Position numbers: made by a program. 46,314 nt of DNA from a virus. Taxonomy: Duplodnaviria > Heunggongvirae > Uroviricota > Caudoviricetes. Shown piece by piece: positions 6,001 through 9,000 of this stretch (position 1 is its first letter; each line of letters begins with the position of its first letter). The DNA is taken from the IMG/VR virus record IMGVR_UViG_2880361019_000007; one strand, given 5' to 3'.

Positions 6001-9000
6001 CATCTAATGTTCTTTCTACGTACTGGGATTATTTGCAGTTTGCATTATTTGAATCAGAAGAAATAATATTGTTTGGTTACTCTGGTCTCGATATTCACCT
6101 TAACCTGCTTATTCGACCTTACCTAACCTCTAAGCCTTTAAGAGTAATTGAGTGGAGCGGTGCTGGTGAACAAAACGCTCGTGAGATATATTGGAAAAAC
6201 CAGTTGAGACGGGAAGTTACTGTAATTAGGTTGGATAACATCACTGATTTTATTGATTGGTAGCGCAATGCGAAGTTAAAGAGGCAGCCTCATATTTATC
6301 AGAGCTGGTGTACGTCCAATACAGGAGGTTATCGTGCTGGTTCTCAAATGCGCGCTGGCTATTGCGGCTGTAGTGGCAATTTATTGTCTTGCTATTGTTC
6401 TTATGGATCGCCTTTCTGATTGATTTTATATTGGCGAGGTGACGGGAGTTAAGTAGAATTGCTGCGGGTGCTTGAGGCTATCTGCCTCAGGCATGAACAC
6501 CAAAAGGCAGATAGAGAAAAGCCCCAGTTAACATTACGCGTCCTGCAAGACGCTTAACATTAATCTGAGGCCATATCTATGCGACACATAGAGATTAGCC
6601 TCTTACGGACCAAAAGGTCAAGGAGAAGCAGGCTATGAAGCAGCAAAAGGCGATGTTAATCGCCCTGATCGTCATCTGTTTAACCGTCATAGTGACGGCA
6701 CTGGTAACGAGGAAAGACCTCTGCGAGGTACGAATCCGAACCGGCCAGACGGAGGTCGCTGTCTTCACAGCTTACGAACCTGAGGAGTAAGAGACCCGGC
6801 GGGGGAGTAATCTCCCGCCACCTCTGATGTGCCAGGCATCCTCAACGCACCCGCACTTAACCCGCTTCGGCGGGTTTTTGCATTAGTCTGGTTGACAAAA
6901 ATAGAAAAATGCGAAAATATGTGGTTTACGAATTCTAAAAAAAGCGAAACTTGAAATGAATGAAAATCAGTTAGCTCCTTGTTGGGAATTTCAACCTTAT
7001 CTTGCTGAAAACTATGTTCGCCACTTGTTGGCGGAGATCGCTAACGTACTTGAGCAGCTGTACTATCATAAGCACGCATTAGACAGCAACTGGTCTGAAG
7101 GTGTAAGGGCTTATGATTGGGTCAGAAATCATCTTATTCAAAATGAAGATGCAATTCCTGGCCTTGAGATGATTTCCAAGGGGTTGGACTATGTAGTTGC
7201 TTTAAATAAAGTTCCGCTACAATTTACCAAAGATTGCATTAATAACCCCAAAAAGAAACATCGTCTGCGTCGAAATAAAGTAGAGTATGAGCAGCTCTCA
7301 TTGTTTGGTGATGTTGAGGCTGAGCAAGATATTACATGGCGAGTCATAGCTGAGCCTTTTTTATCCGAAGAGGGCGATGGTGAATTAGAGTCCACACTGC
7401 CTCGTTGGGAGGTAGCTCTTGTTGGATTTAATACTTATGGTGCTCAGATTAGTATAGTTTCTCATCAATCTACAGCATCGATGCCGCTTATGCCTCTTGA
7501 TTATAACACACTCCCTGACGAAGCGGAGATTAATAAGGTGCCTCTTCGTCGGCGTACGAAGGATAAAGATTTGGATGTGAGCAGTGATGGAACATCAGGT
7601 GAATAACTTCACTGAGTATCGGGGTGATAAGCTCAAACTAGCGAGAATGGCTGTTGGGCTTTCTTGTGAAGAGTTAGCCGAAAAAATTGGCAAGACAAAG
7701 CAATTTGTTAGCAAACTGGAGAAGGGGTGCAGGCCATCGGAGCAATGTCTTGAGTTAATATCTTCAGCGCTTATGATTAAGTCCAGTTTTCTTTTTACTG
7801 AACGAAAATACGCTCTGGAAAGTGATGTCTGCCATTTTCGGAGTAAGAAGTCCAGGACTCAAACGCTGACTAATAGTGTATTGGCCAGGGCTGAGATTCT
7901 TAATATTATAATTTCTGCTGTTGAAGGTGAAATCGAATTTCCTGACGTTAACATACCGGAGCACCCAAGGGCTGAATTACTTACTCCGAATGATATTGAG
8001 CGAGTGGCAGAAGATTGTCGCCGTGCCTGGAATTTAGGTCTTGGCCCTATATCATCAATGGTTAAATTGGCGGAGAGTTTAGGGGTAATCGTTGCGCATG
8101 TTACGGGAGTCGATGATCGTGTTGATGCTTTTACTGTTCACAATAACAGGCCTGTTATCATCAGGAACAATGTTAAAAAAAGCATATGTAGATTTCGCTC
8201 TGATTTAGGTCATGAATTAGGGCATTTAGTAATGCATGAGGGCATAACGACAGGTGATAAACTTACGGAATCACAAGCCGATCACTTTTCGAGCGCCTTA
8301 TTAGTTCCCAGGTTATCTTTCATTAAAGAATTTCCACGAATACGAGGTAAGCAATTCGACTGGAATGCTCTGGTTGAATTTAAACTTAGATGGAAAATCA
8401 GCCTTAAAATGTGTATTTATCGAGCCAGCGCATTAGGCTTATTGACCCAGGAACAGGCAAGAACTGGCTATATGCATCTTAATTCCAGAGGGTATACGAG
8501 AGTTGAACCTGGTGATGAACTTTTGCGCCCTGAAGAACCCGGCATGCTGGCCGAGGCGATTGAAATGCTGGATGATGCAACCTGGCTAAGAATTCTTATG
8601 AAAACTGGCTTGAGCCAAGATTTAATTCGTGAGTTGTTCTCCATCAACAGACCTATTACAAATCCAAGAAATATTTTCCAGATTGTTTGAGTATACCCGC
8701 TTCGGCGGGTTTTTTGTTTTTATTTTCAACGTGTTTGAAGTTTTGGACGGTGCCAGAATAGAATCAAAAATACTTAAGTAGCGCGCAGGGAGAAGAGGGA
8801 TGGACCCCGAACAGGGGGAGTGCTATTTATCTGGAAGGATTCTGTTGATGAAAATCGAAGAATTACGTGAAATTTTTAGTGAAGATGGCCTCTATACTGT
8901 GCGCGTTGAGAATGGCGCTATTGTCAGCCACTGCCGTATTAAATGTTTACAGTCTCTACATAGGAAGAGTGGAGCTGCGTTAATTTACTTTGTGGATGGA

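Follow-up and report, generated by a model that had tools for sequence, protein, structure and literature searches.

Several described families of very small membrane proteins provide the background against which a hydrophobic frame of 29 codons can be read. The very short type I toxins of Escherichia coli, encoded by the Ibs/Sib, ShoB/OhsC and Ldr/Rdl loci, are peptides of 18–35 aa made of a single hydrophobic helix, and the antitoxin RNA of Ibs/Sib lies antisense to the entire toxin ORF. MgrB, MgtS, PmrR, AcrZ, KdpF and CydX, by comparison, are non-toxic small membrane proteins that bind larger membrane proteins; PmrR and KdpF are 29 aa long. Here, we describe a small ORF directly upstream of a hok/sok locus in the window, a 46,314-nt stretch of Caudoviricetes DNA (IMG/VR record IMGVR_UViG_2880361019_000007). 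It resembles the first group in size class and in having one hydrophobic helix, and the second in its single-pass helix, its good Shine-Dalgarno (SD) sequence, its constrained hydrophobicity and in belonging to a kind of gene that often goes unannotated.

Results

A hydrophobic 29-codon frame with a strong SD sequence

An initial annotation of the window had pointed to a GTG at 6334 that is preceded by AGGAGG and opens a 29-aa hydrophobic frame between a SIR2-like gene and hokD. The coordinates, the sequence and chance simulations bear this out, as does the 70-nt gap from the end of the SIR2 frame at 6263, with hokD lying downstream. The features of the region are as follows.

4456–6263, plus strand: SIR2-family gene split by IS1; variable "cargo" of a defence slot, outside the small-ORF unit
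6268–6296, plus strand: putative promoter-like element with a -10-like CATATT (6291–6296), a weak -35-like ATGCGA (6268–6273) and a 17-nt spacer
6281–6333, plus strand: conserved leader, CATATTTATCAG...TACGTC...CAGGAGG, common to all related loci
6323–6328, plus strand: SD sequence AGGAGG, followed by the 5-nt spacer TTATC and then GTG
6334–6423, plus strand: small ORF, GTG start, 29 codons and TGA; predicted single-pass membrane peptide MLVLKCALAIAAVVAIYCLAIVLMDRLSD
6431–6459, plus strand: hok promoter TTGGCG-17-TAGAAT, beginning 8 nt past the small-ORF stop and conserved in hok-linked loci
6466–6637, plus strand: hok mRNA leader/sok antisense region (Rfam RF01794, 107.5 bits, E=2.9e-25), a separate neighbouring element
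6635–6790, plus strand: hokD CDS, 51 aa, type I toxin, annotated as hokD in identical RefSeq loci

The GTG start codon (6334–6336) and the TGA stop codon (6421–6423) enclose 29 sense codons, and the product reads (f)M-LVLKCALAIAAVVAIYCLAIVLMDRLSD, with a hydrophobic core of 19 residues. The start is unambiguous because the frame contains no other ATG, GTG or TTG from the preceding TAA at 6277–6279 to position 6334. At 29 aa the product is shorter than 60 aa, and its best 19-residue stretch has a mean Kyte-Doolittle hydropathy of 2.84. Among all SD-preceded ORFs of 20–59 aa in the whole window, only HokD (3.07) and the small ORF reach a best-19-residue mean of at least 2.5; when the window was simulated 200 times with a first-order Markov model, no SD-preceded ORF at this threshold arose, and lowering the threshold to 2.0 gave a mean count of 0.045. 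The combination of SD sequence and hydrophobic core is far above chance expectation.

The frame is conserved and varies like a coding sequence

The frame is kept in related loci: all 211 copies examined have it intact, with substitutions of the coding type, and 201 of the 204 copies scored for their start codon use GTG. The ORF itself is free of indels, although the leader has 1-nt indels and deletions of 11 nt and 1 nt are found at or after the stop codon. In selection tests on 50 variants, in which p reaches only ~0.01–0.02 because the family is shallow, pN/pS is 0.34 in the ORF frame against 0.53–0.94 in the other five, the lowest value of the six frames, and with codons 2–15 also taken separately (0.23) other frames span 0.53–1.26; 23 synonymous variants are observed where 14.9 are expected (p=0.011), and none of the 19 nonsynonymous variants in the hydrophobic core introduces a charge, a proline or a stop (P=0.019). 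Nucleotide diversity at codon positions 1, 2 and 3 is 0.076, 0.046 and 0.145, respectively, with the third position two to three times as diverse as the other two; the flanking sequence exceeds positions 1 and 2 in variability, with a value of 0.195 for the whole leader. The diversity of the SD sequence is lower (0.088), with the variants AGGAGG, AGGAGA, GGGAGG and AGGGGG at constant spacing and AGAAGA in one variant. In the copy on the pINV invasion plasmids of Shigella and enteroinvasive E. coli (EIEC), the start codon has changed from GTG to ATG, AGGAGG is retained and the neighbouring hok is decayed. Rearrangement breakpoints come close to the ORF, at -22 in E. coli B, -53 in this window and +13 after the stop in loci lacking hok, and among the loci compared they never cut into the SD sequence or the ORF; the SD sequence and the 29 codons are the only parts kept in every context.

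No homologue falls below 59% protein identity. An exhaustive phmmer search of 1.84 billion representatives returned ten matches, each at least 79% identical to the query, and no remote relatives; a separate protein homologue search used the in-frame 40-aa extension of the small ORF as the query. The variability of the residues has no significant helical periodicity of the kind that would mark an interaction face (p=0.24). An overlapping 96-aa frame of phage Tritos was considered as a candidate and rejected, being interrupted in the window and having a pN/pS of 0.63–0.94 in its frame. The small ORF is very probably a genuine gene whose product is a membrane peptide.

Distribution and annotation

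Of 5426 complete E. coli genomes, 1824 (about a third) have the segment carrying the small ORF, and the segment also occurs in four temperate phages, E. albertii and pINV. Essentially all invasion plasmids of Shigella and EIEC with a match carry the small ORF, and the pINV copy lies upstream of icsP. Nearly all matches of a loose 18-nt pattern scan of genome contigs were due to chance, the one real match being E. albertii. The description of the ORF as unannotated holds for nearly all RefSeq E. coli records, although occasional calls exist: it is WP_000960667.1 in strain PM22 (the sole PGAP call), "membrane protein" or "conserved hypothetical" in E. albertii and in the E. coli B strains REL606 and BL21, and a Prokka call on pWR100. 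The BL21 entry is ACT43394.1, and in strain C3029 the small ORF occupies complement 2406536..2406625 of NZ_CP014269.1. A literature search found the peptide sequence or its accession in no paper, and searches on the hotspot and hok, and on icsP, likewise yielded nothing about it. The small proteins given with coordinates in a Ribo-seq preprint on uropathogenic E. coli (SMP3, SMP7 and YohO) are encoded by longer ORFs than this one.

The upstream neighbour varies and the downstream neighbour is usually hok/sok

The gene upstream of the small ORF is of the SIR2 family, as the initial annotation had it, but it is not intact: an IS1 of 768 bp at 5126–5893 disrupts it, leaving a pseudogene in this window. 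Across 176 loci the upstream neighbour comes from more than 40 unrelated families on either strand, including ThsA-like SIR2, AbiH, AbiLii and PDC-S33; many of these are defence genes, and SIR2-type genes are a small minority. Homology with other prophages starts at 6281 in this window. In the loci compared, the small ORF forms the constant right-hand limit of a slot for exchangeable defence genes in lambdoid prophages of E. coli and Shigella.

On the other side, hok/sok lies downstream of the small ORF in 162 of 186 loci (87%). Seventeen loci have the small ORF without hok and with a different junction, and six, pINV included, have only a hok remnant. The small ORF is therefore separable from hok, which is absent or decayed in these remaining loci. 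Hok-type sequence is found in 4727 genomes against 1824 for the small ORF, which most E. coli hok loci do not have and which is missing beside K-12 hokD and in most hok-carrying phage-collection records, those of Stx phages included. Hok is thus a possible partner of the small ORF and, to judge from these loci, not a required one.

Transcription signals and RNA features

In most leader classes the promoter-like element keeps its hexamers (TTGAAT, TTGAAG or TTGAGT, and CATATT) while the sequence of the 17-nt spacer differs. The element scores below the threshold of a consensus scan, and dRNA-seq of Shigella (pWR100, mid-exponential growth in TSB) has no transcription start site (TSS) at the equivalent place; the closest same-strand TSS on pWR100 is 321 nt upstream. 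Further upstream, ~205 nt of non-coding sequence are conserved in most loci. A weak sigma-70 promoter of its own possibly serves the small ORF; it would read TTGAAT-17-CATATT in most loci and be degenerate in the window. A scan found no terminator after the small ORF and none separating it from hok; terminator-like matches inside the ORF are T-rich codon runs at chance level and were discarded.

Relative to shuffled sequences, the fold z-score of the ORF region is -0.11 on the plus strand and -0.18 on the minus strand, and that of the 205-nt upstream stretch is ~0 on both strands. RNAalifold pairs the SD sequence (CAGGAGG) with CUUUCUG of codons 27–29, in a helix with G-U pairs, one-sided changes only, two broken cells and no compensatory changes. 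In Rfam, the sok region next door is the sole match, with none on the small ORF. A promoter-like site on the minus strand, TTAACT-18-TAAAAT (6452 to 6423), would give an RNA antisense to the whole ORF. Its -10 reads TGAAAT in about half of the variants, with loss of the key A at position 2, and the whole site is missing from the no-hok and pINV copies; as an antitoxin promoter it was rejected, not being conserved across variants. No terminator for an antisense RNA was found. Profile searches of Pfam, NCBIfam and PHROG at E up to 10 gave noise and no family, and the peptide has no match to the Hok, Ldr, Ibs, TisB or Fst families. The peptide had been called type I toxin-like, and its size and hydrophobicity agree with that label, whereas a conserved antisense promoter, an RNA fold and a toxin-family match were not found.

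Discussion

Altogether, the comparative data favor a reading, to which we give a probability of roughly 0.55, whereby the small ORF is a mini-gene of lambdoid prophages for a 29-residue single-pass inner-membrane peptide that acts through contact with a membrane protein. It is, as far as its sequence can tell, an orphan small membrane-protein gene that is sporadically annotated as "hypothetical". In our model, the gene would be a self-contained unit of the early-right (nin-like) region in lambdoid prophages of the Rac/Qin type, carried by Escherichia and Shigella, where it bounds a hypervariable defence slot on its conserved right side, usually directly before hok/sok. It would be transcribed with rightward early transcription, possibly also from its own weak sigma-70 promoter, and translation would begin at the GTG by virtue of the strong SD sequence. 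The peptide is predicted to insert as one helix of about residues 6–24, and by the positive-inside rule Lys5 would be cytoplasmic and the acidic tail DRLSD periplasmic. We speculate that it acts by helix–helix contact with a membrane protein of host or phage origin, as other bacterial small membrane proteins do, and not as a lethal toxin under RNA control; that the peptide is a non-toxic modulator rather than a type I toxin seems to us somewhat the better bet.

The main competitor of this model is a new type I toxin–antitoxin module, in which a membrane-damaging toxin would form a tandem two-toxin cassette with hok/sok and its synthesis would be limited by the GTG start, by an antisense RNA and/or by pairing between the 5' and 3' parts of the mRNA that hides the SD sequence. 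A hydrophobic product of 29 aa on a mobile element, directly adjoining a bona fide type I locus, would suit such a module, as would the weak start codon in nearly all copies, the minus-strand promoter-like site, the predicted pairing of the SD sequence with codons 27–29, and the ~205 nt of conserved upstream sequence, which, with the pWR100 TSS 321 nt upstream, could represent a long leader. We nevertheless consider it unlikely: the antisense -10 is degraded in about half of the variants and neither the no-hok nor the pINV copies have its site, no terminator for the antisense RNA was found, the fold z-scores of both the ORF region and the 205-nt stretch are ~0 on both strands, and the SD pairing relies on G-U pairs and one-sided changes, with two broken cells and no compensation. 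Moreover, neither Rfam nor the Hok, Ldr, Ibs, TisB and Fst families give a match, the C-terminus is acidic, and the pINV copy combines ATG with AGGAGG and has no recognisable antitoxin. Similarly tentative is a broader version in which the peptide is a candidate membrane-active effector, be it an orphan toxin of the type I kind or a peptide for superinfection exclusion or abortive infection, that forms a fixed "membrane-killing" cassette with hok/sok at the border of the lambdoid defence hotspot. Less probable still is that the small ORF is an accessory of hok/sok, modulating Hok, for example by helix–helix contact, or tuning the hok promoter or mRNA through its transcription. The frequent linkage to hok/sok, the constant distance of 8 nt from the stop to the hok -35 and the lack of a terminator between the two in our scan are consistent with such a role, whereas the 17 loci with the ORF and no hok, the six that pair an intact ORF with a decayed hok, the excess of genomes with hok-type sequence and the hok loci without the ORF, in K-12 and in most hok phages including Stx phages, speak against it.

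We would give equally little weight to the segment being kept as DNA or RNA, be it a recombination junction, promoter-proximal sequence of hok or a non-coding RNA, with the frame and the SD sequence incidental. The family is young and narrow and, because all copies are close relatives, an 87-nt frame could persist by descent alone; pWR100 has no TSS at the predicted promoter, and the leader and the further 205 nt, all non-coding, are also conserved in most loci. These points are to be set against variation that is phased by codon, the lowest pN/pS of the six frames, the excess of synonymous changes and the conservative nature of all replacements, indels that lie just outside the ORF and never inside it, the failure of 200 simulations to yield a comparable SD-preceded hydrophobic ORF, and the lack of an RNA structure signal. 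As to the proposal in the initial annotation that the peptide is a small membrane partner of the neighbouring SIR2 defence protein, what speaks for it is adjacency in itself, 70 nt apart on the same strand, together with strain C10, where a second, divergent SIR2 allele also precedes the small ORF. Because the upstream neighbour varies over more than 40 families, we conclude that the small ORF is not a SIR2 partner; in addition, IS1 inactivates SIR2 in this window while the small ORF is intact, and the homology that carries the small ORF begins past the SIR2 module. The comparative data thus already refute this idea, whose chance of being right appears negligible, and the small ORF is almost certainly autonomous of SIR2.

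A 29-codon gene that is under selection and is usually skipped by standard pipelines would extend the list of small proteins in a model organism. With hok beside it, the gene delimits the conserved right-hand side of a lambdoid prophage slot whose cargo consists mostly of known or candidate anti-phage genes, which makes the leader and the ORF usable as an anchor in searches of this hotspot. Should the peptide turn out to be toxic to membranes or to stop incoming phages, a new family of very small effectors would be founded; if it is a benign modulator, as in our preferred model, it would be another orphan small membrane protein.

Comparison with described systems places the small ORF near several of them. 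Like the Hok/Gef toxins (PF01848, RF01794), to which it is adjacent and with which it is co-inherited in 87% of loci, the product is a small hydrophobic membrane peptide found on prophages and plasmids. Unlike them, it has no sequence relation or Pfam match, is 29 aa long where Hok has ~50, and lacks the periplasmic Cys-containing domain, a mok-like overlapping frame, a sok-like RNA and a fold of the fbi/tac type. The minus-strand site would give the antisense arrangement of Ibs/Sib, yet this antisense promoter is not conserved, and the locus also differs from Ibs, ShoB and Ldr in having no tandem multiplication, a tail that is acidic and not basic or aromatic, and a strong SD sequence that is apparently free. 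From MgrB, MgtS, PmrR, AcrZ, KdpF and CydX it is set apart by the lack of homology, by being carried on prophages instead of in the core genome, and by the absence of detectable face-specific conservation. As a tiny accessory gene that lies within a lambdoid prophage, has its own promoter-like element (putative here) and is dispensable for phage core functions, it also resembles phage morons and the small early-region ORFs of Qin and Rac, such as the 29-aa YnfS of K-12 Qin. The peptide is not similar to YnfS in sequence and, in contrast to morons, the small ORF has no terminator of its own that we could find and is a conserved border element and not a variable insert.

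Genomic setting of the small ORF

An identical region is found in a Rac/Qin-type lambdoid prophage of E. coli O55:H7, where the gene order is cI-like repressor, Cro/CI family regulator, YdaT-family protein, a 321-aa hypothetical protein (annotated in phage HannyBb as replication initiator O-like), DUF977, SIR2, the small ORF, hokD, a 216-aa protein and an XRE/ImmA protein, with DUF968, RusA and Q further on. The SIR2-family gene is split by an IS1 element, whose junctions share an 8-bp overlap marking the target duplication, and is uninterrupted in E. coli O55:H7 CB9615.

Features of the region (window coordinates; strand where assigned)
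3681-4088, DUF977, the gene left of the variable slot
~4089-6280, variable slot between DUF977 and the small-ORF leader, also present in related loci L002-L007 and L128-L330
4456-6263, SIR2-family gene, interrupted by IS1
5126-5893, IS1, 768 bp
6323-6328 (+), Shine-Dalgarno AGGAGG, 5 bases before the GTG at 6334
6334-6423 (+), small ORF, GTG start, 29 codons, TGA at 6421-6423
6452-6423 (-), antisense promoter-like TTAACT-18-TAAAAT, divergent from and overlapping the hok promoter
6431-6459, hok promoter TTGGCG-17-TAGAAT, 8 nt past the small-ORF stop
6466-6637, hok mRNA leader/sok region (Rfam, 107.5 bits)

The initial annotation described an AGGAGG-preceded GTG opening a hydrophobic 29-aa frame, and the sequence bears this out. 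The frame lies between the end of the SIR2 frame (6263) and the hokD start (6635), is closed upstream by a TAA at 6277-6279, and has no other start codon before 6334. Its product, MLVLKCALAIAAVVAIYCLAIVLMDRLSD, carries a single basic residue close to the N-terminus and an apolar core of 19 residues; the tail is acidic. When the whole window was scanned for ORFs of 20-59 aa with a strong Shine-Dalgarno at 4-9 nt, nine were found, and only HokD and the small ORF (2/9) reached a mean Kyte-Doolittle hydropathy of at least 2.5 over 19 residues; none of 200 Markov-simulated windows held such an ORF. The small ORF is real, a chance ORF being excluded by the scan and the simulations.

Two further short frames were seen in the window. 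A short mok-like frame (MRHIEISLLRTKRSRRSRL) at 6580-6639 (+) ends by overlapping the hokD start codon (ATGA, 6635), which would fit translational coupling within the hok locus. Another SD-preceded hydrophobic small ORF of 45-57 aa (17994/18030-18167, +), third by core hydrophobicity among the window's small ORFs, sits between the endolysin (17337-17870) and Rz/Rz1 (18169-18633) genes.

Tests of selection on the reading frame

Conservation and the pattern of synonymous variants across homologous loci, an analysis that the initial annotation had proposed, both speak for the frame. Among 211 copies pooled from IMG/VR, metagenome, E. coli genome, phage and plasmid loci (37 distinct coding sequences, 26 protein variants), the 29-codon frame is kept in all 211. 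Fifty distinct single-base variants were counted; 23 leave the amino acid unchanged, where the same transition/transversion mix would predict 14.9 (binomial p=0.011). The start codon is GTG except for ATG in the pINV (Shigella/EIEC invasion plasmid) copies and one metagenomic copy, and in five copies an 11-nt or 1-nt change, located at the stop or beyond it, has produced a short C-terminal extension. No indels were found inside the small ORF among the copies examined, whereas the leader does show 1-nt indels. Nei-Gojobori pN/pS is 0.34 in the small-ORF frame versus 0.53-0.94 in the other five, and for codons 2-15, which lie outside the search pattern, 0.23 versus 0.92 and 1.26. None of 19 core replacements brings charge, proline or a stop (P=0.019). 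Nucleotide diversity at codon positions 1, 2 and 3 is 0.076, 0.046 and 0.145; the 53-nt leader reaches 0.195 and the Shine-Dalgarno 0.088. Each test is modest when taken singly, the family being young; all of them agree in direction, and the codon phasing is hard to explain by DNA or RNA constraint.

Distribution and existing annotation

A 187-nt segment (6264-6450), queried at a coverage of at least 80%, matches 1824 of 5426 complete E. coli genomes at ~81% to 100% identity. It also occurs in four temperate phages (Tritos, Evi, mEp460_ev081 and HannyBb), and those Shigella and EIEC invasion plasmids that matched carry a full-length homologue that is 72-76% identical (143 plasmid records matched overall). 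The description of the peptide as unannotated holds for almost all of the 1824 E. coli genomes and fails for a few sources in which it is called: exact-sequence look-up returned 'MULTISPECIES: hypothetical protein [Enterobacteriaceae]' (650 contigs), 'membrane protein' or 'conserved hypothetical protein' in E. coli B REL606/BL21, and 'hypothetical protein' in E. albertii, while PGAP calls it in strain PM22 (WP_000960667.1) and Prokka on pWR100. In the deposited HannyBb record (PP925841.1, 2954-3243), two minus-strand 'hypothetical protein' CDS, probably miscalls, cover the region and the plus-strand 29-codon ORF is not called.

A word-index protein search with the in-frame 40-aa extension gave 23 clusters, which all come from Escherichia-type sources and lack any Pfam domain, and phmmer, run exhaustively against 1.84 billion representatives, gave only ten hits, none below 79% identity. 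No Pfam, PHROG or NCBIfam model matched the peptide in profile searches, and its sequence and accession turned up in no paper of the literature collection searched. As judged by homology, the peptide is an orphan family restricted to Escherichia and Shigella; what is already known is a database sequence, occasionally named 'hypothetical' or 'membrane protein', on which we found nothing published.

Upstream and downstream contexts

The homology carrying the small ORF starts at 6281 in the window. The gene next upstream varies widely: across the 176 loci whose flank was long enough, it comes from more than 40 unrelated families and can lie on either strand. A PADLOC scan of ten upstream representatives returned, among others, SIR2-type, ThsA-like SIR2, AbiH, AbiLii and PDC-S33 proteins; RefSeq annotation adds DUF4145, and inspection by eye suggests reverse-transcriptase-like, DUF262-like, NERD/helicase-like and AAA-type cargo. 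This diversity of upstream neighbours makes the interval from DUF977 to the small ORF a defence/moron hotspot, of which the small ORF is the conserved right border; our literature search found no paper describing this lambdoid hotspot. The same >40 families rule out a dedicated partnership with the neighbouring SIR2 gene, a possibility that the initial annotation had raised.

Most related loci have a conserved non-coding stretch of ~205 nt before the small ORF (2849-3053 in related locus L002), opening with an 8-bp hairpin, GTCCGCTT-N8-AAGCGGAC, exactly at the cargo junction. Only its last 53 nt are present in the window, with nothing upstream of 6281. The stretch matches no Rfam model, shows no excess of folding energy and lacks a conserved ORF.

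Downstream, the small ORF runs on into hok/sok in 162 of 186 loci, changes to unrelated sequence 13 nt past its stop, within the hok -35, in 17, and is followed by only a hok remnant in 6. Deletion in E. coli B has left no more than 22 nt between the DUF977 frame and the small-ORF start codon, with the Shine-Dalgarno and ORF intact. Hok-type sequence is found in 4727 genomes, and K-12 hokD directly follows relE without a small ORF. The small ORF is thus usually hok-linked yet separable, and the only block shared by all contexts is the Shine-Dalgarno plus 29 codons.

On pWR100 of S. flexneri M90T (NZ_CP037924.1, complement 90908..90997; likewise in related locus L250), the small ORF is intact with ATG and AGGAGG, while the neighbouring hok locus is reduced to a degenerate 5' piece ~290 nt before icsP. 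The published icsP start sites, 90709 and 90726 (PMC7132871), lie ~90 nt beyond this remnant. With an ATG-started homologue and a decayed hok/sok 5' fragment lying upstream of icsP, this upstream region would seem to be of lambdoid prophage origin.

Expression and possible function

Most of the divergent leader classes keep TTGAAT, TTGAAG or TTGAGT (TTGCTG in one class), followed by a 17-nt spacer of varying sequence and an invariant CATATT ~37 nt before the start codon. Conserved hexamers around a variable spacer are what a sigma-70 promoter would be expected to show. The putative hexamers are weak (8/12 matches) and were not reported by a consensus promoter scan; the -35 position reads ATGCGA in the window (6268-6273), and the -35 is also lost in one subgroup. 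dRNA-seq of S. flexneri M90T in mid-exponential TSB lists small-ORF-strand start sites at 90709 and 90726 (icsP) and at 91318, and none near 91025-91035, where firing is predicted (PMC7132871, Table S3); with the weak hexamers, this leaves the small ORF's own promoter putative. The small ORF may instead be read from upstream, by rightward early phage transcription or, on pWR100, from the start site 321 nt upstream.

We conclude that the small ORF is a genuine small gene, with a predicted single-pass inner-membrane peptide as its product, probably N-in/C-out by the positive-inside rule, and that lambdoid prophages carry it as a fixed element at the edge of their defence slot. That it encodes a type I toxin, as the initial annotation also proposed, ranks second and we consider it unlikely. 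The peptide looks the part and lies beside a type I toxin, and the antisense promoter-like site would yield RNA antisense to the entire small ORF. However, the -10 of this site is TGAAAT in about half of the variants, the site is missing from the pINV copies and from those lacking hok downstream, and no terminator was found after it. On neither strand does the ORF region fold more stably than its shuffles (z = -0.11 and -0.18). RNAalifold pairs the Shine-Dalgarno with CUUUCUG in codons 27-29, in a helix that is rich in G-U pairs and shows no compensatory changes. The pINV copy combines ATG and a perfect Shine-Dalgarno with a hok neighbour that is dead, an unexpected arrangement for a lethal toxin with no guard, and the peptide falls, by sequence, outside Hok/Gef and every curated toxin family.

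A genuine small membrane-protein gene is unlikely to surprise specialists much; its prevalence, its retention next to icsP on pINV and its role as a hotspot landmark make it a cheap and reasonable target for laboratories working on small proteins or phage defence. Among bacterial small membrane proteins, many, such as MgrB, MgtS, PmrR, AcrZ and KdpF, act through binding to a larger membrane protein. The peptide gave no significant result when tested for a conserved helix face, so partner binding is a putative mechanism for it. The peptide is homologous to none of these proteins, nor to the 29-aa YnfS of Qin, but it is like the former in kind and, like the latter, comes from a tiny prophage ORF: it is an uncharacterised, prophage-borne small membrane protein of a well-known kind.
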